The notes under the pieces: generated by a model
Told to the model about the DNA's origin: nothing
What the model saw: the letters and a program-made list of their open reading frames with translations, nothing else
Database searches by the model: none
Shown here: piece after piece, positions 16,931 through 39,584 of the stretch
How the letters are laid out: every line of letters starts with the position of its first letter
Numbering within the stretch: position 1 is the stretch's first letter
Made by a program: the position numbers and the translations under genes
From: Amphiscolops sp. MND2022
Lineage: Eukaryota
Assembly: GCA_964187785.1 (NCBI GenBank)
Contig: OZ076417.1
Span: forward strand, 10,106,001 to 10,170,000
Direction: 5' to 3'
DNA: 64,000 nucleotides

Positions 16931-17050
16931 ATGATTAATCCTGACAATTTTGTCGGTTTTATTTTGTTCATTTGCTTTTCCCTTGATTTCATTGCTATAG
17001 TCGGTCTTGTGTTTGATCAATTTCTCATTCCTTTTATTTCAAAAATTTAG
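16931..17050 (+). CDS. ORF0 of copy B: hydrophobic 39-aa peptide upstream of gag (probably truncated by a premature stop)
   Basis: MINPDNFVGFILFICFSLDFIAIVGLVFDQFLIPFISKI*, homologous to 43918-44088. Confidence 0.55.
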   Translation: MINPDNFVGFILFICFSLDFIAIVGLVFDQFLIPFISKI

Positions 17051-17339
17051 AATTTCATACCTGTTATGATTAATAACATACCATTACTTGTTCTTGAAAT
17101 TTTTGGCATGAATCATACATCTCGTTTCTATGTAACATATATAACCAATTTTATAAATTTTACTTCTCACTATAGTCTGTACCTTTTTCTTTCAAGTCGT
17201 TTTTGTTGATCATTTTGTCCCATATCATATACATTTCGGTACAGATTATAAAATTGCTTTCTTTTTATAACCCTTTCATCACTCTAGTTAAATAGTTGGT
17301 ATAGTACACAATATTACACAATTTCTCTTACAATATACA

Positions 17340-18720
17340 ATGCTTCCTACTCCTTTTCAATGTACTACTCCACCAACTCGTAATGTACGTTCCAATACTC
17401 ATGATGTCAAACATTTTTTTACAAAACATCATCTTCCAATACACAATTCCATTACCTTTTGAAATCGAAGCTCATTCTATACATACCATACCTCTTCTTT
17501 GAGAACATCTAGTTTCTTATCTATAATATATCAGATACAAAACATATGAAATAAAACACAAACAGAGTTTCAAATCATTTTCAACCCTGTGCAAGCAAGA
17601 CAATAATACAGGAATATACTATAGAACAATTTATCCGCAAAACACAACAATATCACAATATCATTCACTATTTGAACAAACTAATAGAATTTAATGAAAA
17701 CCATTATACACCTAAGTACCGTCCTTGTTTTTTTTAAAAAAACTGCAACAAAAACAACAAAATTTTGAAGTACGAGACATAGAATCCAAGATAACTCGAC
17801 GCAACTACCCTCATTATTAGATCAAAATATATTACAAATACCGCGGTTTCAATACAACTTTTTTCAGAACCTCACACTTAATGACGACACTATACCACAA
17901 AACAAGTCTTTTCAAGGTTTCTTTTGAAATTCTTCAGATTTAATTATCTTTTATATGGGTACAACAAGATCAATCTGCATATACTAACTTCACACAATCC
18001 TTTGATGAAATAGACTTACTTCCTTTCATTATAAACGAAGAATTCATTCAAATACATTACATAAATCCTTCAGACCTACATATACTGTTTTGCTACACTA
18101 TTACGTTTGATAATAACTTCATTCTAGAGCAGTCTGAAACGTCAGATAGACGATCAAATGCTACTACTACTGTTACACTTGATACACAATCTTATTGGAC
18201 GATAATGACATCCAGATAGATGATCAAAATACTAACATCCAAGCAGATGATCAAAATGATCTTGTCTCAGATACATCTGAATTACAAGTACAATACCTAC
18301 AACAAGACCTACAGACAATACAACCAATGACAGAACAACAACCTCACAATATACAACTTGAAATTTTGTCATTACAAACTAATGGAAATCCTCAGGATGA
18401 GTTCTAAAAAACAAATCCTTCACATGATACTCAAAGTATTAACATGATACTCGAAGTACTAAACATATCAATATTCCCCCTACCATTGTAACTTCTAGAA
18501 CTCTTTCTAGACGACCACAACAAACAATTCCTACCAATCCATTACAATACAATCCCAATAGTACAAATACCCATAATACACAAAACTCTGTAAACCCTTT
18601 CCTACACAATACTCAGACAACAACTTCAACCTCCAATATACACAATAATAACGTCTCAGTACCACAAGATTCTTCTATTAGGACCAATGCATATTTTACA
18701 CTTCTGATTCAAGTTTTAAT
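17340..18720 (+). pseudogene. gag: gag 5' part of copy B
   Basis: Starts MLPTPFQCTTPPTRNVRS, homologous to MCPSPFQSTTP*HRNIRS at 44266. FQIIFNP(V) is shared with 44500-44520. Confidence 0.7.
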
Positions 18721-18739
18721 TCACAAATAATGAACGGAC

Positions 18740-21330
18740 TAACATTACAGAACATACAATGCCAAATACAAAACACCCTTTCTTTATTACAGTTGATGAT
18801 TCCTAAATTGGGCTAGGCGCCGTTCTTTTCCAACTTAATGAGGACAACAAAAGGAAAATTATATCGTATAACTCCCGTATACTCAATTCTCAAGAAAAAA
18901 AGTTTTCTACACTAGATCGTGAACGACTTGGTATAGTACATGCACTACAAATCTACAAGTTCCTTATCATAGGATCTCCACATCCACTTCACAAATTCAC
19001 AGATCACAAACCTCTTTTGCACTATTTTACAAAAAAGGGAAATCTTAATCCACGCTTTTACCGTGCTCAAATACAACTCACAAAGTTTCCAAAACTCAAA
19101 ATTTTCCATATTCCTGGCAAAAATCTGTCTGTTGCAGACATGCTTATTCGTTCTTTTACAAAACCTGAATTTCAACTGAATTATCTTAAACATAAACAAC
19201 TTCCACAACAAATAGATTTTGCTATATTACAAAATAATACATTGACATCTGTCCATTACTTAATACAACACGAAGAAATACTACCACACCAGAAACATGA
19301 CTCACATCCTATCCTCGCTGATTATGGAACAGATCAATTTTCAATTCGTATCAATGCTAAAGGTAACGACATAATTGTCAAACCCTTAGAATCATTTTCT
19401 TTTTAACCTTTCACTCCTTTTCAAAACAAGTGTGAAACACCCGTTAAGAAACGTAACAAAACTTTACACCAGCAATCTTTACTTCTTAATGACACTGATG
19501 TTACTAGTGATGATGATGATCATATTTATACTCGGATTCCAAAACCTATTACGTTTCCATCCACTGATCAACTAAATCACACTGATCCTAAACCCACTTG
19601 ACCAACTTTAAAAACTTGTTCTACACTCAAAAATCCAAAACATTTTTCTCACTCTACTTCTGTAGTTGATATAACAGCCCCTATTAAACTTTCTACACAA
19701 AACTCTCAAGTCATACCCTTTTATGATCCTTCTTTCTTCAAGTAAAAGAAATATTTTCAGGGTTTTTTCTTACCAGATGATTTCTCCTTAGACTTGATTA
19801 CACTACAACAACAACAAACTCAAGATCCTGTTTTGAAGACTGTATATCACTGGAAACGCCAAAATTCTAAGTCTGATTTTACTACACCTTTGATACATGG
19901 TTGTTCTTTTTTATACGAATAATATAAAATCTTCTCTCAACTTCTTATTTATGATGGTACCAATCTAATCAGTTTATACAACAAAAACAAATTCGCTGCT
20001 GATACAAAACCTAACATCACTCCATCCTTGATTTACAGTGATATAAGAATTTATCTACCTTTTAGAATTTTTAAAACAGTTTTCATCATCAAACTACACG
20101 CTCATAGTCATACTGGAACTAAAAATACTTACACTATATTTTCACAGTACTGCTACATCCCATTTCTCGAAAAATGGGTTTTTATTTCCATACATGACTG
20201 TCTTGAATGTCAACGCAACAAACACTTCAATATGAAAATCAAAACAGCCCCTCTTCACTCCTTTTCAGAACATGCTCCATCTTTTAACTATCGTGTATCG
20301 ATGGACACTAAAGGTCCTATGAATCGACTTTCTCAAAGCAAATCTTATATACACGTCATTGTCGACGCTTTGAGCCATTTTTTTGTTACAGTACCAATAA
20401 AGTCTAACAATGCCAAAACAACAGCGAAAACTCACAGCGAAACAAAGTCATTGGATTGTCATATTTGGCCCTCCAATCTATCTTGTTACTGATCGCGGAT
20501 CAGAGTCCATTGATTCAATACAAAGAGTACATCTTTGTACTCTTATGGGTATTAGACATTCTCCTGGAACGCCTCACTTTCCTTGGACTGATGGACTCTT
20601 CGTTGAAGTACAAAATAGAAATCTTGGTACACATACTCGTGTACTTACAAAACACTCCCCTCCCAAGGATTGGGCACACCAAATTAAAATGTACGCTTTT
20701 GCACATAATTCACAACCCCTTTAAGCAATGAACGTTTCACCTCATGAATTAGTTTTTCATATACGACCTCGAATCCCTTTAACATTCGATTTAAATTTTA
20801 TTCGAAATAAAAAAAATACTTGTATATCACATTATTGCTCTCAATCACCTATGACAAAACTTATCTAAACCCTTTTTTCTTAAAAACTTTTTCAAAACCT
20901 CTTCCACGATGGTTCCTTGCGGTTCAAACTGCTATGTTACAAATTTATTATATAGTATTTGATTATACTTTAAAGAAAAATAATTCACAAGCATATATTA
21001 CTAAAACGTATCACGAAGGTAAACCTCTTCCACTTGGAACATTTGTTTTGAAACGTAATTTCACCCAGGTTCATTTTTAAACAAACCTAAACCTCTTCGT
21101 ATTGGTCCATTAAAAATACTTGACCGACTCTCTGATGTAACCTATGATCTTTTATGACAAGATTACTACGTTTCACACTCATCGAAAGCACTTGATAACC
21201 TATATTCCAAAAGAACCACATTTATAACCTCATCTTCGTAATGTAATGCGCTTCTCAGACTCTCTTAAGTCAGACATCCCAAAACCCAATGAATACGCTA
21301 ATAGTGATTCCTCTCCATTTAATTCTGACA
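18740..21330 (+). pseudogene. pol: pol 3' part of copy B: RNase H and integrase
   Basis: RNase H: PFFITVD..GLGAVLFQ, FTDHKPL, HIPGKNLSVADML. Integrase zinc motif LHAHSHTG...HDCLECQ. Core motifs SMDTKGP, IVDAL, LVTDRGSE, VEVQNRNL. Confidence 0.9.
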
Positions 21331-21583
21331 CTCCATTATCGGAAGTTGAATCTTGTAAAACCATTTATCCAGCTAATCCCGATACTTCTTCAACTTTTAA
21401 CTGACACTTCATCCTATAGGACAATTATGAAAACTCATGGCACTGTTCCTTTTATAGTTACATATATAGATTTCAATAGAGATCCTACTGTTCCAGACTT
21501 GAAATATGACAAAAGTTTGTTCTACAATCAATACTCGGGCCTCAAATACACTACATCCTTTTAAACACATCTATTCACATCAT

Positions 21584-22204
21584 ATGAACAACCTATATTT
21601 TTCTCTTTTCTATAATACGATATTACTTTCATCTTCTATACCTATCGAACTAACAGATACAGACAATTATCGTCCTCCAGATGACCCTAACATTACAAAC
21701 CTTATGATTTCCCATTATGATTGTGAAAATCAACATAATCTAAGACAATTCAATTGTTAAATGTGAAAAAAAAGCACTGAAGCTCCTTCAAACATACAAC
21801 ACGCAAAAGTTCAAACCCGAGTTTACGTTCGCGCTAAAGCTAAACGAGTTAAAGCATTCAATTGTGAAGCTTATGCAAAGAAAGAACGCAAAATATGTTA
21901 CCAAGACTCAGTGGAATATCGAAGTGTTGATAGAACCGTTTGGAATCACAATACAATACCTCTTCTTGTAACTCTAGACCTTATAAGACCTTAATGGTAC
22001 AACTAACAAAATATAGAACAACTTCAAATACAATCGTACTCTTACAATTCTAGAAGACCATTAATTTCAAGAAAAATTTGAACATTTTCAAACCCTCTTT
22101 TACAGTTTACAAATTTAATACATTGCATTTTGGTACTGTTACCTATATGCCTGCAGATAAAAAATGGATATATGACCCTCTGAAAAAATTTATACATAAC
22201 TATC
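21584..22204 (+). pseudogene. env: env 5' part of copy B (signal peptide, HYDC), cut by the Polinton
   Basis: MNNLYFSLFYNTILLSSSIPIELTDTD...MISHYDCENQHNLRQF; aligns to 53660-54230. Confidence 0.85.
22199..22204. repeat. Left 6-bp target-site duplication ACTATC of the Polinton
   Basis: Identical hexamer at 35959-35964. 6-bp TSDs are the established Polinton norm. Confidence 0.95.
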
Positions 22205-22307
22205 AGTAGTAGGGAAAGGGGGGGGTTTAGAGCCAATCATGAATCCTTGAGATGCGCTTAGAGCCATTTATGAATCCTTGATCTGTTAGAGCCAATTATG
22301 AATCCTT
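22205..22307 (+). repeat. Left TIR, with iterated TAGAGCCAATYATGAATCC units
   Basis: Reverse complement of 35857-35958 with about 7 differences. Units start at 22228, 22259 and 22287; a fourth at 22315 and a degenerate fifth at ~22370 lie beyond the TIR. Confidence 0.93.
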
Positions 22308-22763
22308 GATATGCTAGAGCCAATTATGAATCCTTGATATTCTTTCATGCATTTCTCATCGGTGAACTTTAAAGCCATTCGTGAATCCTAATCTTTCAAA
22401 CATTGAGAATTTATTGTTTGATGTTTTGACAAATCAGATACAAAATGTCAGTTGTTCAAACTAGATAAAATTTTCTTTCTTGTTTCAATATTCCGTTCTC
22501 AATCTTAATATACCATGATTTGAAACTTCTTATATAACCCAACTATTGAACAAAACTGAACAACCTTTCATAATATCATACCAATTTGAACATTGAATAA
22601 CCGAAATTATCTCGACTTTTAGCTGAAAATTATCAAACAAAAATTTTTTTGTTGAAACGTATTCGGAAATCACCATTTTTCTAGCTGTTTTTGTCGTTCA
22701 AAAATGGTCATGAAATCTTCTCCAAACGTAACATGTATATAATGATTCCATGAAGCTTGAAAA

Positions 22764-25700
22764 ATGGTGATTTTCGAAAACAGGATGCATCGTTGCGAAG
22801 ATTGCTGTAAACTTTTTGCCTCGAAAAAAACCCTATATCAACATATTCGGAGTCAACATAAAAAAGAACCAGTTCTTTCCCTCCCAAAGTTTAAATGCGG
22901 CCACTGTGGTACAGAATTCATTTCCACGTCCAATTTACTTCGCCACTTGAGGAACGTTCACAAACTAACTGGCAATTTGAAATGTGTTTGCTGTACGAGT
23001 ATTTTCGGAAATCGAGTAACACTTGATAACCATATGAGCAATTCCCATTCGTACAAGTCAGGTAGCAATATCACTGAAAGATCTGAATTTGGCGAGGCAG
23101 CAAGAACATCTGGCTTCAAAACAGCTCTCAATTCGGCTTTCACAATTTATCGCTTGGAGTTGGAATCAACAGTGGTGGAACCCTTTCAATATTTAGTATC
23201 CAACAACAAACAAATCCTATCATTCATCAACAACAAATTACCAATCAATGGGTCAAGCAGAGTTGGCCTTACTATTCACGTTCGACTGTTGAAACCGTTG
23301 GAGGGAGAGACAGTGATAGCGTATTTCCATACAAAAATGGAACGATTGGGACATGAACTGCAGGATGATGACTTTAACAATTTTGTCGATCAACTAATCT
23401 CTCAAATGAATGTTTATTGCTCTGGAGGATCAGGTTGGGTTGTGGACACGCTGCTTGCCGTTGAAGTCAAAGTCGCCGCTCCCGTGAGACAATCAGGCTC
23501 ATCCTTCATTCCAACGCCTGCCACATTGAGTGGGCTCTCAAGAAGTATTCTGAATGTTAGAAACAAAAGTGATGACTTATGTTTTCTGTACTGCGTTTTG
23601 GCGGCATTGTATCCTCAGAAGAAACACTGTGATCGACCTTCTTCTTATATGCATTTGCTCGAAAGATTGGACTTCAAAATCCAAGATTTTCCAATGTGTC
23701 TCAGTAAAATACGCTTTTTTGAGAGACGGAATAATGTTTCCATTACAGTTTACCGCTTCGAAAATGAAAATCTCTACAATGTTTATCATTCCAAAAACAG
23801 AGCAAGTCGAAAGAAAATCAAGTTACTGTTGCTGATGGAGGGCACAAAAAGTCACTATTGTCTCATCAAAAACTTCTCGAATGTTATGCATAGGCTGCAC
23901 CGGTCATCCAAGAAGCGATTTAAAGGTCCCAAGAGCAAGTTTTGCGGCAATTGTTTTCAACCGATTGTGCGAAAAAACTATCAAAAACATTTGGAGTTTT
24001 GTGAAGAGCACAAGCCTGTGGAAATACAAATGCCCGAAGATGGGAAGACTATATCTTTCAGCAATTGGCAGAAAACGCAATGGTGCCCTTTCGTTGTGTA
24101 TGCTGATTTGGAAGCAATTGATGTTAAATGTGATGAAATTGGCGCATCAACATCGAACACCACCGAAATTGAAAGGCAATATCCAGCCAGTTTTGGCGCT
24201 GTTCTTTTCGACCAGAGAACAAATAGTATCGTGGATGAAGCATTCTACAGAGGAGAAGATTGTATTGAAAAATTGATGGAAACTTTGAGGGGTTGGTTGA
24301 CCAAGGCCTACGTGGAAAAACAAAAGTATCGGTTTTTAAATATATCCAAACTAGAACGGGAGCAGTTGATGACAGATGCCGCTACTGCTTGTTGCATTTG
24401 TGGCAATAACTTTGCAGACCCTCGCAAAGTGATTCATCACTGCCATCTAACAGGTCATATCTTCGGCGTTGCACATCCCGAATGTAATTTGAAAGCACGG
24501 TCAGTTTCTTTTCTTCCGGTGTTCTTTCATAATCATTCTCGTTACGATGCACATCACATCATCAAACATTTGAGCCTCAAAGCAAATGAGACTTTGTCGG
24601 CCATTTCTAGAACCGATGAAGTCTACATCTCTTTCAGTGTTTCCATCCCTGTCGGATCATACACAACAAAAAAAGGCAAAATTGTGAAAATTTCGAATGC
24701 ATTGCGATTCTTGGACAGTTTCCAGTTCATGACTCAAAGCTTGGACTCTCTTGCAAAAACCTTGAAGAAGGAGGACTTTGCGCTTCTCAAAGAACATTTT
24801 TCTTCAGTCTATCCCCAACTGGATTGGACGCTCTTTTCTGAAAAAGGTTTTTTCCCGTACAGTTATCTCGATTCTTTCGAAAAGTTCAATCAACCTCTAC
24901 CGGGTTATGGCGATGATTGGAAAAACACTTTGACTGGTAAAATTGATGTCACAGAAGATCAGTATAAAAAAGCTCTTAATCTCTACAACTTGTTGCAATG
25001 CAAATCCCTGGGCGACTATCACGACGTATACCTAAAAATCGATGTACTTGTTTTAGCAGATGTCTTCCAACTTTTCAGGAGAGTGTGCATGAAAGTTTAC
25101 TCTTTGGACCCTGCTCATTTTTTCTCGGCACCGAATTTGAGCTGGGAAGCAATGCTTATTACAACCAAAGCAACCCTGGGTCTGTTAACAGATATCGATA
25201 TGCTCTTGTTTTGCGAGAGAGGCATCCGTGGAGGCATCAACGGCATTGGTGAGCTTCGCCATTTTGTAGCCAACAATAAAGACCTCAATGACTTTGACGC
25301 GGAAAAACCTTCAGTTTACGGAGCGTTTTTTGACGTGACTTCCCTTTATGCAGGGACCATGCAGCAAATGCTTCCTCTCGATTCTTACACGTGGAATGAT
25401 AAAATTACTCTTGTTGAGGTACTCAACACTAGTGACGATTCTGATTTTGGATATTTTGTTGAGGTTGATCTCGAGTATCCTGCGGAGCTGCTTGATCTAC
25501 ACAATGATCTGCCGCTTGCACCAGAGAAACTTTCCATAAAACAATCATGGTTATCTCCGTTTGCAAAGAGCTTTGGAGTGAAACTTTGTTCGGATGCGCC
25601 GAAAAAGTTGATAGAGACGCTTTTCGATAAACATAATTATGTCTGTCACTACAGAAACTTGAAATTCTACCTGAAGCATGGTCTCAAAGTGAAACGATTG

Positions 25701-26591
25701 CACCGTGTATTGCAGTTTAGACAAAGCAAGTGGCTTGGGGATTACATATCCAAAAATACTGTAATGAGGAAACAAGCTGGTAATGATTTTGAAAAAAATT
25801 TCTACAAACTCATGAGTAATGCTTGCTTTGGTAAAACTATGGAAAATTTGCGCAACCGCCGGGAAATACTTTTTGTCAGTAGTAAGGAGCAAGCTGAAAA
25901 GCACTTACAAAAACCCAATTTTAAAGGCTTTCAGATCATCCACGACAATTTAGTGTCAGTCACCTTTTCTCCCAACAAAATTTCTTGGAGTAAGCCAACT
26001 CCGGTCGGTGCTTCAATACTTGACCTTTCAAACCTCTGCCTCTACCGCTTCCACTACGACGAGATGAAACCTCGATATGGTAACCGTTTGAAAGTGTGTT
26101 ATAAAGACACTGATTCGCTACTATATCGCATGGAAACAAAAGACTTATACGAGGAAATGCAAGGCTTTAAACACCTCCTGGATTTATCTGATTACCCCGA
26201 GTCTCATTTTCTTCATGACAAATCCAACAAGAAAGTTCCCCTAACAATGACTGATGAACTTCAAGGGAGGGTTCTCAATGAAATTGTGTGTTTACGATCC
26301 AAGCTGTAGAGCATTCAGTTTGAAGGGGGTGTGAAGCAGAGTGCGAAAGGAGTTCAGAAAAGTGTCAAAAAGACTCTGCATCATGACCTTTTCAAATCAT
26401 GTCTGTTCGATCATCAATCTGTCAGAAGATCAATGACACAATTGCGTTCTATCAACCATCAAATTGTTGTCAACCGGGTAAACAAAATTGCTCTGAGTTC
26501 TTACGACGACAAACGATACTTACTGGATGATGGCGTGCAATCACTTGCTTATGGACATTATTCACTTGAAAAGAACAACAAACATGGTTAG
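22764..26591 (+). pseudogene. polB: Protein-primed family B DNA polymerase (~1275 codons) with one in-frame TAG at 26307-26309; N-terminal C2H2 fingers, vOTU-like region and EndoVII-like insert
   Basis: Motifs VYADLEA (ExoI), FDVTSLYA (A), KLMSNACFGK (B), YKDTDSL (C). ORFs 22764-26309 and 26331-26591 are in the same frame, reading LRSKL*SI where Y is expected at the stop. Confidence 0.95.
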
Positions 26592-26657
26592 TCTGACATC
26601 GAAACGATTACTTTCTTTTTGGAATTGAAAATATTGTTCTAGTCGTTTTGTTTTCAG

Positions 26658-27180
26658 CACTTTGGGATTCAATGGAATTAGACAATGTACAAAGTGCGCC
26701 CTGTTCGCCCGTTTCCTTGTCCTCGAGTGATTCTGATGAGGACAATAGTGATTCGTCCGCTTCGGCTTCTCCTTTACCAAGTGCCGAGTCATATAACAAG
26801 CTCAACCAAACACCAATTCTACTGCCACTTTTGGAATCCAGCCCATTCAGTAATAACACTTCTTTTTAATAATAGGTTTAAAATTTTCCTAATTCATTTT
26901 TGACTACGGGTTTGCTTCAGGTCCTCCTGATCCTGGTTTCCACCAGCAATCACAAACAGAAACTGACGATGAGCAATATTGCATAGATTGGGACGAGTAT
27001 GATGAAATTGTTTCCAATCAAGAGAGGAATCAACCAAATCTCCCGAAATGTCCGTACATTGATGACAAAGCTCTCGAAGCTAGCGATGACAGTGACGTTG
27101 CTAAATGTACTAGCAAAAAAATACGCTCAGGACGTCGTCTTGTGTCCTACAGTGACAGCGAAGACTCTATTGATGATTGA
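26658..27180 (+). CDS. Predicted two-exon acidic Ser/Asp-rich coding unit (26658-26849, 26921-27180), spliceable in frame onto pPolB or translated from ATG 26672
   Basis: Candidate GT-AG introns at 26587-26657 and 26850-26920, each 71 nt with a pyrimidine-rich acceptor. Phases join to one open frame ending ...SYSDSEDSIDD* at 27180. Confidence 0.55.
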
Positions 27181-27300
27181 GTTGAATAACAAAAATACAT
27201 CTCTTCCTATTTTTCTCAAACTCAGTTGAAGACGACGCATAATCTGATCAGATCGAAGTATCGTGTATAAAAAAGATTTGCTCAGAAAATTTATTTGCAT

Positions 27301-27831
27301 TCAAAAGATAGTATATCGGAATAGTGTATTGTATTTATCATTCATGAAACGAATAATTTCAATTTCACTATATAATTTAAATTTTTCATGGAGTTGAGAC
27401 ATTTCGTGGGGCATTTTTGCTATGTAGTGAATCAAAAAGAGACAATAGAGGCCACACATATTGGAGCTGGCATTTTGTAGAGTGAGTGAAATTTGCCGAA
27501 AACCGGTTTTTCCATATAATTGATTCAAGCGATTAAAAAAAGTTGTGTAGAGAGATACTGGTTGTCCCAAACAGTCCCAGACGAAAACTTGTAGTTGCTT
27601 TTGTCCCTGCTCAATAGTAGCGCCCAGAAGCAACCAGTGCGATCCATGTGATTTTTCAGGGGAAGTGTTTACAATTTGAAACCAAACCAATCTGTCAATC
27701 GCAGGAAAGTTTGTGGGCATTTGAGTAGTTACTGGTTGCTTGCTGAAATTGTCTGCAGACCAGATTCCTGCGAAGGCTACCGCCAAGTAGGAATTTTGAA
27801 GAATCATGTGTTGTAGAGTCGCACTATCCAT
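27301..27831 (-). CDS. Adenain-type (C5) cysteine protease, 176 aa, intact
   Basis: NTSPEKSHGSHW (His), WDCLG (Asp), QNASSNMCGLYC (Gln/Cys). Confidence 0.92.
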   Translation of the reverse strand: MDSATLQHMILQNSYLAVAFAGIWSADNFSKQPVTTQMPTNFPAIDRLVWFQIVNTSPEKSHGSHWLLLGATIEQGQKQLQVFVWDCLGQPVSLYTTFFNRLNQLYGKTGFRQISLTLQNASSNMCGLYCLFLIHYIAKMPHEMSQLHEKFKLYSEIEIIRFMNDKYNTLFRYTIF

Positions 27832-29172
27832 CGTAACGTCTGTTTTTCTTTATGTTTCTTGCCGAATCTATGGTAACTTGACTGAACCGCTCACCAATTA
27901 AAAATAACTCGATAGCATCGTCGAGAGCCTTTTAAAAATACAACTTTAAGGTTAGGCTGGAGCCGGTAAGTTCGGGAAAGAGTGTGAAATTTTTGCTGGC
28001 CTCCTCTGTTGAAGTCAAATCAAAGACAAGAAAAAAATGATTGTCTTCATAATCTTCTAGCTTGATTCCGTTGCTTTTTTCCTTGAAGCCAAGTGCTGTT
28101 ATGGTATTGTAATATAACCTCACATTGTTTGTTGTGTCTAGGGGAGTTCCCGCTAGCGGTACCCCGTTGCCTCGCTGAATTTCTACCCGCTGCAAGTTGA
28201 ACTTTTGATAGGAGAATGGTGTTTCATTGAGTGGCGTACTCCGGAACAGAGAATTTTTTTACCATACATAATGTTAGACGCCGAATGGGCTCTGTGCCAA
28301 AAATATTCTCCTTTATGAAACAATTTTGTCCAGCTTGAATGATGAAACTTTTGTTTAAACTCTCAATGTAGGGATAAACCGCGTCACTTTTCAGTAAAGC
28401 CCTCTCGATTGACAATTTCACGCTGTCAGTCACGACCACTTTTCGAACAAAGAGAGAGGCTTTTTCAACAACTGGAAGTATTTTACCATCAAGATTCTTG
28501 GCTTCGTCATCAGTGCCTTTTAGATGCAGAAGAGTGTTGTTGGGTGATCGATACAGACGCACGTGAAGAGTTACATTTGGAAGTAGAAATTTCTCACAGT
28601 CCAAAAAGTCAATGTGGAGAGCACCGCAGAGCTGAATTCTGCATTCCTTTTTTTCTGCAAAGCTGGCAGCAAGCTTGTTAAAGAGTCGATCTTTTCCAGT
28701 CGACTTTGGCAAATAGTTGTATCCTTGGCATTCGGCCCATGAGTTTTTGCTTTCCGTGTCAGTTGAAAGTTCAGTCTCTACAAAATCGGAATGCAAGTAA
28801 CAATTATTGCTGTGAGAAATCAATTTTTCATTCAGATATAGTTCCGCATGTGAGAAAAGTGTGTGAAGTGTGTTGTTGGAGAAAACAACTTCAAAATCAC
28901 CAGGTTTCGCTCTTGTCTTTCCATCTTCATGATAAAGTGCTACTTCAACACACAGTACAATGCGATTCAAGTCAATAAGGTTTTTCGCTTCCGCAGCTAC
29001 GAAAAAGTCCAACTGTGGTCCACGACAACCCACGTGTGGGAAAACTTCTTGGTCGTAGGCGCCTTCATAATTGATCATAACTCCTGGTTTCTCGAAAAAG
29101 TCCAACGCACTGTGTGTCACGGGCCTTACAATCTCGGTTGCTCTGCCGACAAATAAATTGTTGACGGATGCC
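27824..29172 (-). pseudogene. Double jelly-roll major capsid protein: frameshift near 28250, premature TAA at 27932-27934, no ATG in the expected position
   Basis: N-terminal ALDFFEKP...LDF...IDL..I.L pattern and C-terminal FFLVFDLT pattern as in Polinton MCPs. The frame continues F*KALDDAIELFLIGE...RRYDG* to 27824. Located between the protease and core/penton genes. Confidence 0.85.
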
Positions 29173-29186
29173 AGCTTGCTGTGTTT

Positions 29187-29711
29187 TTAATTGGAATATT
29201 GAATTTCAGACAAAATGTGGGACCGACTTCTTTTGGCGGCTGTTTTTCTCGAAATGCTTGTCGAACTGTTTCGTTTTCTTTTGGCCAATCCTGCCAATGG
29301 CCGAACGCCGCTGTCATTCGCCTTCCGCCGCGCCGCCCCCGTGTTCCGCTCGTCGTCGCCGCCGCCGCCGCCGCCCGGGCGAAAGGCTACTCCTGCCGGT
29401 ATGTTTTTAGTCATTGTTTTCGCAGCAGTCTTTTTCGCGACACTTGCTAAAAGTTTTCGATTGGGCTTTTTTTTGCCTGCCAAGACATCTCCAATTTCGG
29501 GAATGGCAGTCTCAAGCAAGTTTTTGCCAACTTGTCTCGCAACAGGCAAAACGTATTTTCTTACTAGGGGAATGGCTACACGACCCATACGAACGGCAAA
29601 AGCTCCGAGTCCACCTCCAGATCCCATCTGTCTGGCTGGTCCACTGTAATTGGTGTGAGCGACAGATTTGATTTGTGAATCGTAATGAGCATCCATTGTA
29701 TAATTGTACAA
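29187..29711 (-). CDS. Basic, Gly-rich putative core or membrane-lytic virion protein, 174 aa
   Basis: RQMGSGGGLGAF followed by an amphipathic basic helix (VRKYVLPVARQVGKNLL) and a K/R-rich C-terminus. Sits between the capsid genes. Confidence 0.7.
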   Translation of the reverse strand: MYNYTMDAHYDSQIKSVAHTNYSGPARQMGSGGGLGAFAVRMGRVAIPLVRKYVLPVARQVGKNLLETAIPEIGDVLAGKKKPNRKLLASVAKKTAAKTMTKNIPAGVAFRPGGGGGGDDERNTGAARRKANDSGVRPLAGLAKRKRNSSTSISRKTAAKRSRSHILSEIQYSN

Positions 29712-29764
29712 TTTTCAAACTGACCAACTGATCCTTCCAAAAGTTGAACAATGAATGATGTTGT

Positions 29765-30775
29765 TCAATTTCGCGGTGCTGGTCGGAAAGCCAAAGTAAT
29801 GTTGGTGCGGCCGCAGCTCAAAAAGGGCATCTTTTGACCCATCTCATTGGCAAGAGTTAGACTAATGGACTGGAATTGGGGTTTCACGATCCGCTTCCAC
29901 TGTAAATTTGTGAAACTTTTGTGGTTCACCTCGCCCATAGTGTGCGCCAGAGTCATACTCTTCAGGGGAATGGATCTCAAGAGTGCCGTCTGCGTGTCGC
30001 CCAGCATCTCATTTTGTACAAGATCACAATAGAGAAACATTGTGTGACTACCTGCATTCAAATCGACGGGCCACTGCCCGATTTGTTTCACAACATTGGC
30101 AGTACCTGAAGCTAGTTGGTCAGGTGCTTCAGTTTCGTCACGACGCTGCTGTGATTGGCAATCAATGATTACATCGGTACCCAAAATGTTTTTCAAATCT
30201 TCTGATACTACCGTAATTTTTAGTCCCTCATTTCCCACAATGCAGTTCGACTTGACGTGCAACCTTCTAGTCACACCATCAATTTTCCAAGACAACATGG
30301 AATCATTGGACCGATCGTTTTCCATCAGTTTGCTCTCTTTCTTGCCCATAGCAGCTTTCGTGATGGCTTTCATTATTGAATCCACCGATGGATAACAACC
30401 AGGCTTGAGACGAAGCGTTACAGGTGAACTGTATTTTGGTAATTGAATAAATCCAGAGGGGACTGTCATCGAAATCAAACCTGGTTTGTGATGCCTGGAA
30501 TTTTTTTCTTTGGGCGAAGCCGGTAGTTGTTTCGAGACTGTGAACTGTCCGAGAGTCACGTTTTGCACCATTGCCGGCCATGCAATTTCAACGAGTGCCA
30601 CTTGCCAATCACCAGGCAAGGATATTGTTGTTGGCAACAGCGTCGTGAAGTTTGACAATGTGTTTGCGGGAAAAGTAGCCATGGATGCATTCGATATAAG
30701 GTTCATTGTGAATTCTTGACCATCGCTGCTTGATATGTCCATGTCGCCTACTGTAACGTTAGATTGGTACAACAA
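29765..30775 (-). CDS. Minor capsid protein (penton, single jelly roll), up to 336 aa
   Basis: FTMNLISNASMATFPANTLSNFTTLLP..ISLPGDWQVALVEIAWP and MFLYCDLV..EMLGDTQTALLRSIP match the Polinton penton pattern. Confidence 0.88.
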   Translation of the reverse strand: MLYQSNVTVGDMDISSSDGQEFTMNLISNASMATFPANTLSNFTTLLPTTISLPGDWQVALVEIAWPAMVQNVTLGQFTVSKQLPASPKEKNSRHHKPGLISMTVPSGFIQLPKYSSPVTLRLKPGCYPSVDSIMKAITKAAMGKKESKLMENDRSNDSMLSWKIDGVTRRLHVKSNCIVGNEGLKITVVSEDLKNILGTDVIIDCQSQQRRDETEAPDQLASGTANVVKQIGQWPVDLNAGSHTMFLYCDLVQNEMLGDTQTALLRSIPLKSMTLAHTMGEVNHKSFTNLQWKRIVKPQFQSISLTLANEMGQKMPFLSCGRTNITLAFRPAPRN

Positions 30776-31916
30776 ACTTCACCAGTTCGGGTTCGTAAAA
30801 CTTGCCCTGAATAATTTCGTTATTGCTATCTTTGACAGTGTAGGTTGGAGGATTGATAGTAGGTATCGATGTCACAGTGAACAATTCTTCAGTAAATTGG
30901 ATTTTGTAGCCCCGATGAAAGGTATCAATTTTGCGTCGAATTCGAACTTGATCACCAATTTTGAATTTTGGTTTCTGCGGATCATTGGTATGACAAAGCG
31001 ATACTAAATATGGTACATCTTTTTTTGAAACTGAAATTGGAGCCAACTTTGTCATGCGATTCACGCGGCGATTAATGATTGATACAACTTGGTCGAGATG
31101 GTCAATGTAAGTGTTACTGTCATGTTCATGCATGTACTTGAAGATCAGTGATTTGAGAGATCGAATATTTCTTTCCGCCAATGCAGACTTTGTTTCGCTT
31201 TTCGTGGAATAAATGTCGATACCTTTTGACCGACAAAATGTGGCAAAGTCTCCTGCAAACTCGCGCCCCTTGTCGACCCAAATCTTTTCCGGTTGGTGCG
31301 TTGCACTGCAAATCTTTGGCAATGGTGGCTTTCCGTTTTTGACAATTATCTTCTTTAGAGCTTCCTTACAAGCTTGTGACGTTTTTACTTTGAGAGGCTC
31401 TACCCAGAGATAACGGCTTAAAACGTCTACCGCTACAAATAGATATCTGATTCCATTATTGGTTGCTGCAAGTTTCTGCATGTCGGACAAATCTATCGAC
31501 CAAATTTCATTTAGCCTGTAACTGACAACTTTCAGTCGCACGAAACGTTTCCTAGTGAGTTTGAATTTCGTGTAGGTTTCGCTCGAATTGAGGTATCTAT
31601 CTACATGCGCTGATGGACATTGAGATGCAGCTATCAAGTTGCGTCGGCTTCCAAAAGCCGCTTTGCTCCGCGGATTCGTGTAACTTTCGTGAATTTTTGG
31701 GAACGAAGTAGCATAATTTCGGTCAATATCGTCATTCAGTAGAATTCTACTTGCATTACATTTGGAGCAGAGAAAGTTGTCGTTGTACTCCTTGCTACTT
31801 TTGAGACCGCTGCATCTAAAATGCACCCAACCGCAGATATGACACCAAAGTGAGGGACGTGTTTTGGATCCTTTACCCAGAGAAGCTTGACACGATCCAC
31901 AAAACCAACTTTTCAT
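30759..31916 (-). CDS. int: Retroviral-like DDE integrase with N-terminal PHD-type zinc finger, 385 aa, intact
   Basis: WSIDL (D), AVDVLSRY, IWVDKGREF (D), AERNIRSLK (E), KFKIGDQVRI. N-terminus CGSC...CHIC.WVHFRC...CSKC. Confidence 0.93.
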   Translation of the reverse strand: MKSWFCGSCQASLGKGSKTRPSLWCHICGWVHFRCSGLKSSKEYNDNFLCSKCNASRILLNDDIDRNYATSFPKIHESYTNPRSKAAFGSRRNLIAASQCPSAHVDRYLNSSETYTKFKLTRKRFVRLKVVSYRLNEIWSIDLSDMQKLAATNNGIRYLFVAVDVLSRYLWVEPLKVKTSQACKEALKKIIVKNGKPPLPKICSATHQPEKIWVDKGREFAGDFATFCRSKGIDIYSTKSETKSALAERNIRSLKSLIFKYMHEHDSNTYIDHLDQVVSIINRRVNRMTKLAPISVSKKDVPYLVSLCHTNDPQKPKFKIGDQVRIRRKIDTFHRGYKIQFTEELFTVTSIPTINPPTYTVKDSNNEIIQGKFYEPELVKFVVPI

Positions 31917-31917
31917 T

Positions 31918-32613
31918 CTAAAAATTTGTCAACCACTGACTGCTGCTACCCTGTTGTGTGTCGAGTTTTAGTTTTTTGTATGGAGACAGTCCGCTCGCTG
32001 AGCGAATGTGATGCTGATTCTGACTGCTAGTCTGCCTTGCGTAGGTGTTCGCCAGTAAAAACTGAGGAAGTCTGAGAACTTCAACAAGGGTAAGGAATTT
32101 CTTTGGCAGTTGTTTCGTATTGACTTGCAGTGCTGTGAGAAACTCAACAACACTGACTCCAGTATCTTGCTGATCTAAGTTTATAGTTTGATTTGTTTCG
32201 TCTATCGTAGTTCGATCACAATCTTCAATCTTTTTTAAAATTTGTCTCGATCTTTCAACTTTCCCTCCTGTTACGCCAGATTCTAAAAGATTTGACAAGA
32301 CTTGATCAGATGAGTTTTTGTAAGACTGTTTCGTTTCTGTATTGTTCGAACTGCCCAAGTCCTCCGATTGGTACCGCGAGTTCAAGTTCAATTGAGCGAC
32401 TAAAGTATCTTCGGGCAATTCTTTTGCCGTATTGAACGTTTTGAAGTGTTCTTCTTCAACGGGTTCAACTTTGCTTTCAGTAACTTCAAACTTTGAGAGT
32501 AATTGCTGTTTTTGTTTCTCACGTGCGTCCGGTGTTTTCTCTTGTCTTTTAAGAGAAATATACTCTTCATGAGTGATCAAAATTAGGTCACGCAAGCTAC
32601 TGTTCGATACCAT
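31918..32613 (-). CDS. Polinton hypothetical protein, 231 aa
   Basis: Intact ORF tightly packed between the integrase and the 114-aa ORF. Confidence 0.75.
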   Translation of the reverse strand: MVSNSSLRDLILITHEEYISLKRQEKTPDAREKQKQQLLSKFEVTESKVEPVEEEHFKTFNTAKELPEDTLVAQLNLNSRYQSEDLGSSNNTETKQSYKNSSDQVLSNLLESGVTGGKVERSRQILKKIEDCDRTTIDETNQTINLDQQDTGVSVVEFLTALQVNTKQLPKKFLTLVEVLRLPQFLLANTYARQTSSQNQHHIRSASGLSPYKKLKLDTQQGSSSQWLTNF

Positions 32614-32941
32614 GGCAATATTCCAAATGATTCAGTACGGATGGCAGAACCAATTTCAATAAACGCAAACCCCTCTCTGAGCCCAACACTTGGCGTTTTC
32701 TTTTCAAGGCAACTCGCCGTTTCGAACAAATTTTCTCTAGATTCGTTTTCTCACGTGCAAGGAGCGCCGCTTTTTGTTGCAACCTCTTGTCTAGCTTGAC
32801 TTTCCCTTTTACAACGTTGAAAACACAGTCACAGAAAAACTTCATTATGTCATCTGGACAATGCAAAATGAAAAATCTTCTCAATGTTGGTGAAAATTTC
32901 AGATATAAATCAACTGTATAGTAATTTTGTAAATTCATCAT
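32597..32941 (-). CDS. Small basic Polinton protein, 114 aa
   Basis: FFCDCVFNVVKGKVKL resembles the CECALNxLxGNVxL motif of a small Maverick protein. K/R-rich. Overlaps both neighbours. Confidence 0.75.
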   Translation of the reverse strand: MMNLQNYYTVDLYLKFSPTLRRFFILHCPDDIMKFFCDCVFNVVKGKVKLDKRLQQKAALLAREKTNLEKICSKRRVALKRKRQVLGSERGLRLLKLVLPSVLNHLEYCHGIEQ

Positions 32942-33611
32942 GGATGGGGATGAAAAGTTCTTCTCTCGCGCAATAGAAGTGGGCTGGTTCGTCGCCAGAG
33001 CAATGGGAGCTATATCGCAGGTTCCTACTGCTCCTCACATCCAAATCGATCAATAAATGACCGAAGGCTTCCTGAGTCGCTCTTTTATAGACTTTCAATA
33101 GAGTGGAACGCTCGCCCAGTTGACGTCCCAAAATCCCAATTTGTTCAGAATCCCTTGGACTATTGAAGAGAACAATTTGAGTCACATTCAAATCAATCGT
33201 TTTTGAGTATTTTGACTGTTGGAATAGGTTGTGCCGCAGCACCATCAAATGAATGTTTCGGTGACGACCAGCGATGACCAAGTCCAAAAATTCTTTGCTG
33301 TTAGCAGCTTCGTCATACAAATCATCTAGAACAACGAGAGTTCGTTGCTTCAAGATTTCCCCTCGCTCGACCGCATTCCACTCCAGGCCTTGAATGAGTT
33401 CCAAATGGATGTTCTTTACCAGGCATTCTGCTTCAAGCTTTTTATATGCTTGTTGATAGTGTTTATAAAAGTAGAGTATTTTGTCGAAAACAGGGCGAAA
33501 CATTTTTTCTTGGTTGCAAATCATTCTCCCAATCAATTGTGTTTTTCCTGAACCAGCTGGTCCCACCACAGAAATGAAGCAATGAGGAGACGTACTGATT
33601 CGCTTATTCAT
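32910..33611 (-). CDS. FtsK/HerA (A32-like) genome-packaging ATPase, 233 aa from ATG 33611
   Basis: Walker A GPAGSGKT, Walker B LVVLDD, arginine-finger region AGRHRNI..VLRHNLFQ. Confidence 0.93.
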   Translation of the reverse strand: MNKRISTSPHCFISVVGPAGSGKTQLIGRMICNQEKMFRPVFDKILYFYKHYQQAYKKLEAECLVKNIHLELIQGLEWNAVERGEILKQRTLVVLDDLYDEAANSKEFLDLVIAGRHRNIHLMVLRHNLFQQSKYSKTIDLNVTQIVLFNSPRDSEQIGILGRQLGERSTLLKVYKRATQEAFGHLLIDLDVRSSRNLRYSSHCSGDEPAHFYCAREELFIPIHDEFTKLLYS

Positions 33612-33961
33612 GATTTTGGGCCTGGTAAGATATGACCGATACAAGCTGAAAGAATCGCTAAAATCCCGCTAGAAACTTTGTTGTCGTTTTCACAAAGAGT
33701 TAGGAAAAGAATACAGAACGTGAAAACTGCGATGAGTATGAAGTAATGTAAAAATACCAAAACCAGAGACCTCTCCACTCGGGAATCACAACAGCAAAAA
33801 CTATAGGGTGGTCTCTCGTTGTCTGTTTCATCAAATAGGATTCTTTCAAAGTTCGGAATTGATAAATTTCCTTGGTCGACTTGATCCTCCTGATCGCCTC
33901 GATTGTTTATCGTCAAACTGCTGCAATAGCCACTTGTATGGCTCAAATCAGGGCTGCTCAT
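33608..33961 (-). CDS. Small two-TM membrane protein, 117 aa from ATG 33961
   Basis: CCC motif followed by two hydrophobic stretches (LVLVFLHYFILIAVFTFCILFLTL; GILAILSACIGHIL). Its TGA overlaps the ATPase ATG (ATGA). Confidence 0.7.
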   Translation of the reverse strand: MSSPDLSHTSGYCSSLTINNRGDQEDQVDQGNLSIPNFERILFDETDNERPPYSFCCCDSRVERSLVLVFLHYFILIAVFTFCILFLTLCENDNKVSSGILAILSACIGHILPGPKS

Positions 33962-34044
33962 AACCTCGTGAATGTTTGAAATTATCAGGTTTCTGAACGT
34001 CAGAATGCAACTGAACAGAACAAAATTCAAAGTACAAATGAATG

Positions 34045-34455
34045 TCAAAAAGGAAATGCATCGAAATGCTCTCTATGGAACAGTTTGACAAATATCCAAT
34101 ATGATATTCCGGAGAAATGTCCAAGTAGCATGTTGTTACGGAAAGACTGAGCCTTGGTTACAGTGTACACGTATCCGGGTCCGACATCTTCAAAGCTGCG
34201 CATGTATCCATATGCATCATGGAAAATTGCATGCAGTCTCAAAATTTTGGAACAATTCAGGTAATTGTCCAGCTTACTATCGCCTGGCCCTATTTTGCCA
34301 CCAAATGGTGCTTTAGCGTTTACTTCCTTCAAGTCAACATTCTCGTCTATATAACGACAAACTGCTAAGAAGGCATTTTTAGTGGTACTGTTTTTAGGAA
34401 AGCAGTAGTTAACTGAAACAAAATTTTCACAAATTTGTCTGGCTGAAAACATCAC
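34045..34455 (-). CDS. Phospholipase A2-like protein (parvoviral/adintoviral PLA2X type), ~136 aa
   Basis: KIGPGDSKLD (Ca-loop-like GPG) and HAIFHDAYGY (catalytic HD..Y). Confidence 0.7.
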   Translation of the reverse strand: MMFSARQICENFVSVNYCFPKNSTTKNAFLAVCRYIDENVDLKEVNAKAPFGGKIGPGDSKLDNYLNCSKILRLHAIFHDAYGYMRSFEDVGPGYVYTVTKAQSFRNNMLLGHFSGISYWIFVKLFHREHFDAFPF

Positions 34456-34509
34456 GAATGTTCTAAAAATTTAAATTAGGAGTAATCCGACTGTTTCCAA
34501 AATGTGTTT

Positions 34510-35343
34510 TTACAGAAATGAAGTATCGATTATAGTGTCTTCATTATAAGGGGAAAACAGTTGAGGGCTCGAAGTCGTGTTGTCGATCTCTTCATCCAGT
34601 TGCAGTGGTTGGTTCATACATTCGAAGCACATGCATTGAGCATTTGAGTGTCCCAAGTCGATATCCAAAGTTCTACTGTGCTCCGTTACAAAAAGTCGTC
34701 CGATACCGCGTTGTAGAAGTTCAATATAGGGTATTACTGTATCCTTGAAAGGCGCATCGCTCTTTTCTAGTTCCACTAGCTTTCGGAACACGTATAGAGC
34801 CTTTTCCTTATCGGTGCAGTCACCCAAGGAATTGTGTCTATCCAGTTCCCAAACGCTGTTGAATTTGCATCCCAAACTCTCAGTCGTTTTCCGATTCAGC
34901 ATGCTTTTCATTCTCTCGCCTTCTATAACGAACGATCTGTTACTAAAACTTGACATCTCGGTTCTCAGAAAGTTTTCAGGGTAGGAAACTGTGAGAAGTC
35001 GAACTTTTGCCCATTGCAAATTGGACAAAACTTTTGGAATAGTTTGTTTCAAAAATGTTTCAGCGTTAGTGCACTGTGGTAGGTACAGCAGAAGATGATA
35101 ATGATTGGGAGGCAACGCTTGACAAAACTCATCGAGCGATCCATTACTGGGAGCATCTTGTTCGTGTACTTTTCCAATAAATTGACATTTGTGGGAATTA
35201 GAGAGTATTTCCAATAATTTGGAGAGACTTGTTGGTAATTCTAAGGTGTCTTTCTCGTAGACATTACTGTAGGCTTCGGATTCTTCAGTTGAGTACAAAA
35301 GCAGCCAAAAGTTACACGGTATTTCGCGAAACACTGATGTCAT
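34510..35343 (-). CDS. Hypothetical protein, 277 aa, with HUH-like motif
   Basis: Intact ORF, first gene from the right TIR. VHEQD...PPNHYHLLLY; C-terminal CMCFEC. Confidence 0.75.
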   Translation of the reverse strand: MTSVFREIPCNFWLLLYSTEESEAYSNVYEKDTLELPTSLSKLLEILSNSHKCQFIGKVHEQDAPSNGSLDEFCQALPPNHYHLLLYLPQCTNAETFLKQTIPKVLSNLQWAKVRLLTVSYPENFLRTEMSSFSNRSFVIEGERMKSMLNRKTTESLGCKFNSVWELDRHNSLGDCTDKEKALYVFRKLVELEKSDAPFKDTVIPYIELLQRGIGRLFVTEHSRTLDIDLGHSNAQCMCFECMNQPLQLDEEIDNTTSSPQLFSPYNEDTIIDTSFL

Positions 35344-35856
35344 ATCGGTCGTCAGGAAAAAAGAATGGCAACTGCTTCAGAGAAAGTTTAAATTATAATG
35401 ACGATTTCTCTTGTCACAAATATAATCAATGATAATCATGGAAGATTCCTTTGGGAGTCGCCAAAAGAATTTTCCATGCATAAAAGAGTTTATAGTCGTA
35501 AATGCTGCCGATCCTGTTTTGTTTTAGTTTCGGGAATCAAAACTCTTCTAAATTTATCAATTTCTTTTTCTTGGAATTACCTTTATCACCAGTGCTCCTG
35601 CTACCAGAGGACAAAAGGTTAGACGTTTCTGATTGAATATTTTGCTGAGGAGAAGTACATGAAAAGAACTTGTTTTACCGATTCGATTTTCATATACAAA
35701 TTGTTTGCTTTGATTGAAAGTTTGTTATCAGTTTGCCTATGTAAAGAATTGTGAAAATGAACTGTAACCTCTCTAATGTTGAATATTAGGACCCTGATTG
35801 TAGATTAGGAGCTCTAGGACACCGATAGCTGTTGAGAATTTGCATGTTTTAAGATT

Positions 35857-35958
35857 AGGGATTCATAATTGGCTCTAACAGTTCAGGGATTCATAATTGG
35901 CTCTAAGCGCATCTAAAGGATTCATGATTGGCTCTAAACCCCCCCTTTCCTTACTACT
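35857..35958 (-). repeat. Right TIR of the Polinton
   Basis: Ends ...ctaaaccccccctttccttactact; contains three repeat units. Confidence 0.93.
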
Positions 35959-38010: not shown

Positions 38011-38199
38011 CTTAAATAACTCTAAAGAACTCTCTAAACTTACAGAACTCTTCGATATATCTCTACCTCTGAATTATAGCTCTTCAATGAATATCAACAG
38101 AGTTGATCTTCGAATAGACATTTCTATTACTTGTTTGAATCAACCAACTGTCAAAATTCGCATTTTGTCCCTAGCTACTCCTGCAAAACAAAATAAAGC

Positions 38200-39584
38200 C
38201 ACTCTTTAGTACTTTTTCAATATGACTCAAGCACACATTGATCTTCAGTCACAATTTGACGCTCAGAACATTTCAAATATCTCAGATCCATCAACTACAC
38301 CTTTGTGTAAAATTTCAGCAAAGCCCTTGCTAAGTCCTATTGAAACTACAAAGCATATCGAATAAATGAAGACTACCAGATGGTATTCTGAATCTCCTGG
38401 TAAAAGTGATGATACACCTTCAAAACATTCTGAACAATCTATTTCAACACGTCCACCTTCTAAAAAGAAACATGATATCATGAGAGATCCTGCGTTTTCC
38501 ACTTCTCCAATCTATCCTCCAATACTTTCTCCAGAAGATTCCATTTCAACACAAAGAGATGAATATCTCGTACCACTCCTATCACATGATAATATCAAGT
38601 TCAAATCACAACTCACTTCATTGTACATGTATCCTACAGACTATACCTTCAGACTCTATGATAAGAATCAAGACTTTTTCACTTCTATCGCCTCAAAGAT
38701 AAATGACTCCATATCAGTATTGGCATGAAAACAAAATCAACGTCTTTTCATTACAATTCGGTTTTCTCAGACCATCCTTCTATGATCTCAAAACCGATGG
38801 GAATGATACTTCTTTTCTCACCACTTCTCAAAAGGTAACTCATCACTCTACGTACACCACATTTCTCAAACACAAAAGACCTCAAAAGTATATTTTCATC
38901 AATTATAAATATACATCACAATTACACCATGACACACTTATACACTATCAACCACTTTCGTATTACTGGCTATCTTCGAAATTATGACCCTATAAAACAA
39001 TACTTTTGTCTCTTACCGTATAATGATACACCTTGGCCGATCATCGTCCCACAAGAGTATCTGTTACATTTTGCTGACTTCCTTCTACCGTGGAATGTAC
39101 CTACTATCATTGCAAAACACTCATTAAACACCTTTTTTCTGCTCTTCCTAATGACAAAGAAAAGTCGTATTACAGAACTCTTTCCGAACAGTCAGATTCG
39201 TACAATGAACTCTTGTTCATTTTTGCCAAAATCATAGCAATTATGATCAAAACTGAACCAGCCAGATCTGAAAAACTTCTAAATCACTATTTACACTAAA
39301 CCTAACCTGAACATTACATTCCAACGCAAACATTAATCACTACCACTGACAAGCTCACCATTTTTCGCAATTCACGAACTCTTCGTGATAACACATACAA
39401 AGTGGATCCATACAAAAAGAATCCTACAGATTCTCCACTCACCGTTCTTACACACATACTTGAATGGTACTATCAAACATACAACATCTTACAATCTCTA
39501 AGAGTCACAGAATCATCTAAAACTACAAAAACTACACTTGAAAGGTTGAACATACCCTGGGTTGATGAAAAATGTAATTCTTGA
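38200..39584 (+). pseudogene. ORF-Y: accessory ORF downstream of env in copy B (frameshifted)
   Basis: ORF pieces 38366-38728, 38703-38987, 38929-39237 and 39090-39299 share KSQLTSLYM.PTDYTF.L.DKNQDFFTS and ITG.LRN.DPIKQYFCLLP.NDT with 56500-57780. Confidence 0.75.

Follow-up and report, generated by a model that had tools for sequence, protein, structure and literature searches.

Polintons and other family B polymerases

The core genes of Polintons were called intronless, with introns only in cargo genes (bioRxiv 2022.07.12.499685), and intronless core genes also appear in PMC8097293, as a description without a formal criterion. The Polinton analysed here, which lies in a stretch of 64,000 nucleotides (the window) of a 1.07-Gb animal assembly, departs from this description, as its gene for the protein-primed family B polymerase (pPolB) contains two conserved introns. 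It shares with the animal Polintons/Mavericks (eupolintoviruses; 'Alpha' adintoviruses, PMC8502044; vertebrate Mavericks, PMC8097293) the inverted repeats, the 6-bp target-site duplication, the PF03175 pPolB, the rve integrase, the adenovirus-type protease, the A32-like ATPase and the layout in two modules, whereas the polymerase gene differs by the two introns and by an acidic C-terminal tail that carries conserved motifs.

Spliceosomal introns inside Polinton-type elements are also found in dinoflagellate eupolintoviruses. According to the sections of PMC12166617 that treat them, these introners are recent, transposon-made introns that are depleted in coding regions, and about 90% of the tested pairs fit an insertion after integration. 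Compared with introners as portrayed in these sections, the present introns are old, saturated in sequence, found at fixed positions, and at least ten active lineages have kept them. Their interiors are unrelated between families, and no match confined to an intron occurs among the 45 matches of a DNA search that skips common words. The pPolB introns may have an old introner origin.

Family B polymerases of herpesviruses, RB69 and archaea have at their C-terminus a short peptide that interacts with a partner or contains a nuclear signal; these tails bind sliding clamps or processivity factors, and phi29-type enzymes need no clamp or processivity factor. The tail in the window differs from these tails in that it has no sequence match to any PDB chain. 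Adenovirus pPolB is likewise made from a spliced message, but there the additional exon is tiny and N-terminal, in contrast to the C-terminal tail here. The closest analogy with experimental support is the N-terminal tail of Pol1, which is, in the part of PMC6166128 that deals with it, acidic, has two aromatics at a distance of eight residues next to a helix, and was shown to bind H2A-H2B. As far as that part describes it, this Pol alpha tail and the present one are both extended, non-catalytic tails of family B polymerases with conserved aromatics in acidic flanks; the present tail is C-terminal and has another spacing.

No paper describing the tail or the introns was found in the literature; Repbase entries and supplements (e.g., the maps of PMC8502044) were outside the scope of this search and may bear on novelty. 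The probably spliced C-terminal tail on a Polinton polymerase is real, conserved and apparently undescribed.

The element and the state of the window copy

The element is delimited by terminal inverted repeats and by the target duplication ACTATC (6 bp).

22205..35958, no strand assigned: Polinton element of 13.75 kb (inverted repeats, ends plus target-site duplication, Pfam matches)

pPolB is encoded on the plus strand, and the protease, the capsid-sized frames, the integrase and the ATPase on the minus strand. The pPolB matches PF03175 with an E-value of 1.4e-22, and PF00665 (rve integrase), PF00770 (C5 protease) and PF04665 (A32 ATPase) are above the cut-off. The element thus shows terminal inverted repeats with a target-site duplication, a protein-primed family B polymerase, and an integrase, a cysteine protease and a packaging ATPase, by which Polintons are recognised. 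In siblings, a frame of 453-476 aa without a Pfam match lies where the double jelly-roll major capsid protein is expected. The other ORFs of family A (families are introduced below) abut closely and bear no signs of introns.

The window copy is decayed. An in-frame stop codon at 26307-26309, 93 codons before the donor of intron 1, interrupts pPolB, so that this copy is unable to make the polymerase plus tail, and the capsid-sized frame is split at about 28227-28258; the sibling L101 has neither defect. The initial annotation had proposed that two introns fuse a tail to the window's pPolB. The frames join as it proposed, but the stop codon had been overlooked and the fusion is interrupted in this copy.

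Gene structure of the polymerase and its tail

The 3' part of the polymerase gene is organised as follows.

22764..26586, plus strand: pPolB exon 1, with zinc fingers, N-terminal region and phi29-like polymerase core (Pfam and the fold of a relative; stop at 26307-26309)
26587..26657, plus strand: intron 1, 71 nt, phase 1, donor G/GTTAGT, acceptor TTTTGTTTTCAG (position and phase common to ten families)
26658..26849, plus strand: exon 2, 192 nt, linker rich in Ser and Asp; the aromatic of F-x-x-PDPG is encoded by the final complete codon of this exon
26850..26920, plus strand: intron 2, 71 nt, phase 1, donor A/GTAATA, acceptor TTTGCTTCAG (kept in ten families)
26921..27182, plus strand: exon 3, 85 codons plus stop, the conserved motif part of the tail
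26846..26940, plus strand: motif 1, F-S-P-P-D-P-G-F, complete only once intron 2 is removed (equal spacing in the intronless P0015, P0018, P0057, P0112, P0140 and family K)
26986..27000, plus strand: motif 2, acidic DWDEY
27049..27078, plus strand: motif 3, CPYIDDKALE, in relatives [CN]-P-[FY]-I-x-x-[EK]-A-x-E
27115..27138, plus strand: basic patch KKIRSGRR, candidate nuclear localisation signal (a basic patch is present in the families and in intronless relatives)
27139..27162, plus strand: motif 4, LVSYSDSE, putative CK2-like sites (the contiguous relative P0140 ends with the same motif)

As previously annotated, both introns (26587-26657 and 26850-26920) run from GT to AG, have a length of 71 nt and are in phase 1. 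The donor at 26587 is in phase 1 of the pPolB frame and the length of exon 2 is a multiple of 3. The joined frame stays open until the stop at 27180-27182 and adds 150 residues with 21% D/E, 19% S and 7% K/R, which agrees with the acidic, Ser-rich, in-frame tail of about 150 residues proposed before. The earlier remark that ORF scans overlook this spliced tail is supported as well. The equal size of the two introns, which had been pointed out, carries no meaning: over nine family representatives intron 1 measures 62-77 nt and intron 2 64-88 nt, and since the lengths vary in this way the match of 71 nt with 71 nt is due to chance.

The ends are of the U2 type, as all 16 introns listed are GT..AG introns with extended donors such as GTTAGT, GTAAGT, GTGAGT, GTATGT, GTAAT and similar words, and the acceptors are rich in pyrimidines. 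A YTRAY branch-point-like word is present in 7/16 introns at no fixed distance, and this consensus may not be that of the host. In the nine representatives the AT content is 60-82% in introns and 51-64% in exons. A looser version of the two-intron geometry is found at 5 of 6000 random positions in the window's flanks.

These numbers bear on the reading in which the splice signals and the open frames arose by chance in a spacer between genes. The window copy is decayed and its splicing is read from sequence, which would suit such a reading. However, all comparative evidence, between families as well as with intronless relatives, contradicts it, as does the rarity of the geometry at random positions, and chance is hardly credible. 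The gene structure, i.e., the polymerase joined to the tail via two introns, is very probably real.

Conservation across families of the genome

Copies were collected by a DNA search (45 matches, with 40 of 112 candidates scored), a protein search with exon 3 (64) and a PF03175 search (93), and the fetched copies were sorted into eleven families, A-J plus K. In the ten families A-J, whose polymerases are 64-86% identical to that of the window, both introns are present in phase 1 at the same positions, so that the GT/AG sites and the frame are conserved in sibling Polintons, a comparison that had been suggested as a check. The donor of intron 1 lies 6-10 residues past the last conserved GH of the polymerase in 9/9 representatives and intron 2 lies just before x-P-D-P-G. 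Exon 2 has a length of 171-207 nt and is a multiple of 3 in all nine.

The ten pairs formed by families A-E are far diverged. At the polymerase end pS is 0.64-0.99, which is near saturation, and the intron interiors align no better than shuffled sequences (z -1.8 to 2.1). For exon 3 a pN of 0.24-0.51 stands against a pS of 0.64-0.88, and different codons encode the same amino acid at 16 of its 18 invariant residues. By these values exon 3 is under purifying selection. Exon 2 has one invariant column in these families and is otherwise conserved only in its length modulo 3 and in its richness in Ser and acidic residues. Divergence within families was not used as a test of selection, as it is mostly decay after insertion.

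Within families, 47 copies, with tandem duplicates omitted, were compared with four family representatives: at intron 1 the donor is intact in 43 of them and the acceptor in 45, and at intron 2 the donor in 39 and the acceptor in 40. The lost sites are point changes or deletions in decayed copies. This retention mostly reflects recent ancestry. In family H, with eight near-identical copies, the best-fitting intron 1 has 69-72 nt, exon 2 is constant with 210 nt and the two-intron frame is open in six; one copy has a private stop and one has lost donor 2. A shared stop in exon 2 of family H was considered and rejected, as it is private to this one copy. The weakest acceptors, those of intron 1 in families E and J, are ambiguous. 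Several family A copies are frame-shifted in an A-run before motif 4, and no copy of family A with a precise intron loss was found among the loci examined.

Some loci deserve separate mention. In L037 of family C donor 1 is GTGAGT and the unspliced frame passes through the 69-nt intron into exon 2; in family I the unspliced frame similarly crosses a 72-nt intron into exon 2. Tandem duplications of about 1.7 kb, which include the 3' end of the polymerase, the tail exons and downstream DNA, are present at L007-L010 (C12) and at L019 and L021-L025 (C1). Five of 20 further polymerase loci (L125, L127-L129 and L134), representing more distant pPolB families of this genome, were left out of the analysis as they have no anchor motif.

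Intronless relatives and the history of the introns

Among the homologues listed, the closest named relative of the polymerase comes from the gene models of an acoel, Convolutriloba macropyga, so that an acoel or an animal close to this group is the probable host. The last polymerase motif is reached by 106 of the 120 listed homologues, and 11 of these 106 carry a DPG[FL] tail in the same ORF. The tails contain DPG[FL], an acidic stretch, a basic patch and a motif resembling [NC]PFI-x-x-EA-x-E, and P0140 has all four motifs in one frame. Two of the 11 need a qualification: the frame of P0014 seems to include an unspliced in-frame intron where intron 2 would lie, and P0057, as a gene model, may be composed of several exons. 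Uninterrupted tails were seen in genomic DNA at L112 and in family K of the same genome (L132 and L174), which is intronless, encodes the tail in one frame, is 44% identical to the window's polymerase and is the sister of P0112. Because relatives encode the tail in one uninterrupted frame, it is the normal C-terminus of one pPolB clade.

Removal of intron 2 yields F-S-P-P-D-P-G-F, which is the [FYW]-x-x-P-D-P-G motif of the intronless relatives. The aromatic four places before the D of DPG is present in 8/9 representatives, in families H and J, and in 6/10 intronless tails; it is absent from the intronless tails of P0020, P0026, P0028 and P0031. The spacing of aromatic and PDPG that is rebuilt in this way fixes junction 2 without RNA. 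Most pPolBs outside the tail-bearing clade end naturally near the position of donor 1, and database entries such as P0004-P0012 stop 5-30 residues past the last motif. A metagenome scan yielded four loci, two of which reach the tail, and scans of viral contigs found no locus.

In a quick tree of 113 rows all tail-bearing rows fall within one clade of 30 rows (98). A careful tree of 25 rows, whose root rests on four tailless rows, separates tail-bearing from tailless rows at 100/99. Within it, a 15-row clade (99/98) holds all two-intron families together with a subgroup that has intron 2 only or no intron, and the intronless K/P0112, P0026/P0031 and P0018 fall outside this clade. The two-intron families may be monophyletic, as the AU test does not reject this (p-AU 0.39), and the 15-row clade has no firm internal branching order. 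P0015 is intronless though nested among intron-bearing rows; it could derive from cDNA. As shown by these trees, the tail marks one clade of pPolBs and the intron-bearing families are nested among intronless ones. A later gain of the introns, inside a pre-existing tail, is likely as the simplest reading, for which a single gain as well as gain and loss are both possible.

Probable splicing of the polymerase message

In the preferred reading, the end of the polymerase gene is divided into three exons in this Polinton clade, and the host spliceosome would routinely remove both short introns between them. One protein would result, with the polymerase core and an acidic tail of 130-165 residues, and the introns would have been gained inside the pre-existing tail and kept since. 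Such constitutive splicing of both introns is suggested by the comparisons above, with a probability of about 0.78.

Host introns had been proposed as a standard for the intron length. The 25 provisional introns of host CCT genes have 218-5756 nt and none is near 70 nt. Some of these introns are poorly called, others lie on an unplaced contig, and the sample would miss any short in-frame intron within an exon hit. Against this small CCT sample the 71-nt introns are atypically short.

The initial annotation had favoured alternative splicing into polymerase isoforms with and without the tail, and as a second option a separate spliced gene starting at ATG 26672. The isoforms rested on the stop codon at donor 1, which is a by-product of the donor, since GTTAG in phase 1 supplies a stop codon. 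This stop occurs in 6/9 representatives and is absent in families D, F and I, and also in H and J. An unspliced message would run on for 6, 11 or 87 residues in D, F and I, and for 1-87 residues overall, so that there is no conserved tailless end. No AATAAA was found between donor 1 and acceptor 2 in any of the eight families checked. These results do not point to a tailless isoform under selection.

These observations also weigh on a reading of intron 1 as a regulated switch, with a parallel in the last intron of the Drosophila P element, which is spliced in a regulated, germline-type manner. Retention of intron 1 would then give a complete tailless polymerase that is inactive, mislocalised or degraded, and splicing, e.g., only in the germline, would give the working enzyme. 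The switch could draw on the polymerase core, whose end lies directly upstream of donor 1 and which is predicted to fold without the tail, on the natural end of most pPolBs outside the clade at this place, on the constant position of donor 1 behind the last GH and on the retention of both introns in ten families. It is nevertheless unlikely, as the retained-intron end varies (1, 6, 11 or 87 residues), the poly(A) hexamer is missing in all eight families, the intron interiors share no sequence that could serve as a regulatory site, and intronless families exist in the same genome.

A separate small gene made of exons 2 and 3, starting at ATG 26672 or receiving a host leader by trans-splicing onto acceptor 1, is very improbable. 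Family A does have an in-frame ATG after acceptor 1, but some copies of this family have a changed ATG or have lost it. The reading fails because 5/9 representatives lack a Met in exon 2, and in the other four it stands at unrelated places; moreover, both splice sites of intron 1 fit the frame of the polymerase in each family and the relatives fuse the same tail to the polymerase. Constitutive splicing onto the polymerase remains the preferred reading.

Possible function of the tail

A structure was predicted by AlphaFold from a 65-row alignment led by the intronless P0026. The core has a mean pLDDT of 88.7 and phi29 polymerase is its best fold match (E 9e-20), and residues 839-906 are below 50; the tail of P0026 is shorter than that of the window and few alignment rows cover it. 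The low pLDDT suggests that the tail is a probably disordered arm with short motifs, and as the polymerase core is complete without it, the tail is probably not catalytic. It contains a basic patch and 11 S/T-x-x-D/E sites, which make its phosphorylation plausible. Basic patches are also found upstream in the polymerase, so the tail need not be the sole import signal.

Searches did not name a function. Pfam named none for exon 3 and P0140, a 16-row profile of the tail had one chance-level match among PDB sequences (E 1.2), the best value in the ESM Atlas was 0.79, which is below lead level, and the single match in phage records (E 0.04) was judged compositional. Papers searched for the motifs of the tail yielded noise only. 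The aromatic spacing of Pol1/Mcm2 is absent, the conserved aromatics being the junction F and F6, W23 and Y/F45 of exon 3.

From the composition and the motifs, nuclear import together with docking on a basic chromatin partner can be proposed tentatively, at slightly less than even odds; more broadly, the arm would dock on host chromatin or on replication factors. The basic patch would import the enzyme into the nucleus, and the motifs with aromatics in acidic surroundings would bind a basic partner, to a degree that CK2-type phosphorylation could tune. The most likely partners are histones and the basic core protein of the element. Docking would assist strand-displacement replication across packaged DNA, a role like that of the acidic Pol alpha tail.

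The tail had been described initially as DNA-mimic-like, and it could in this sense occupy the cleft in which the polymerase itself binds DNA, or a DNA sensor of the host. A D/E content of 17-37% in 9/9 representatives would be in accord with this, and acidic disordered tails can act as autoinhibitors of DNA-binding proteins. DNA mimics such as Ocr and Ugi, however, have a folded scaffold that shows carboxylates like DNA phosphates, and the P0026 tail is predicted to be disordered, which is weak evidence given the few aligned tail rows. Selection acts on Pro/Gly/aromatic motifs, and the most acidic exon has one invariant column among five families. DNA mimicry is therefore improbable and less likely than import and docking.

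The switch and the docking function can be combined in a further, unlikely proposal, in which a probably acoel-associated branch would have placed the clade's own chromatin-handling tail behind host-spliced introns as an on/off gate. With spliced introns the enzyme would enter the nucleus and replicate through nucleosomes or core protein, and with retained introns a tailless dud would be formed. If true, the replicase of a virus-like element would be controlled by splicing in the manner of the P element.

Implications

With ORF-based annotation the polymerase loses about 150 residues, both in at least ten families and in database entries such as P0004-P0012. The trees date a probable intron gain in the replicase of a virus-like element, and the retention of the introns through saturating divergence points to a long reliance on nuclear host transcription and splicing. 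The conserved motifs of the tail offer a handle on the host factors used by Polintons, and the splice junctions are simple markers that separate true expression of the element from read-through.

Further observations on the element and its surroundings

A small basic core-like protein with the word MGSGG is encoded at 29187-29696 on the minus strand. This word resembles an adenovirus protease site, and the protein is a candidate partner of the acidic tail. In families A, B, D and E an antisense frame, about 145-165 codons long, overlaps its gene. An ORF of 135 aa at 34045-34452 (minus strand) without a Pfam match is kept in 5/5 families examined. Its pattern GPG..D / HD-x-x-Y resembles that of parvovirus-type phospholipase A2. 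PLA2X genes are described in the adintovirus paper (PMC8502044).

The terminal repeat at 22216-22351 contains tandem units of about 25 nt (AGAGCCAAT..ATGAATCC), which are found at both ends. The Polinton sits inside a decayed repeat with strong GC skew (about 17000-22200 and 36000-40000), probably an LTR retrotransposon with an extra gene, and further copies of this host repeat are present near 1-6 kb and 44-60 kb. The histone genes of the host (L141-L164) are organised as large tandem arrays whose unit measures about 3.63 kb.
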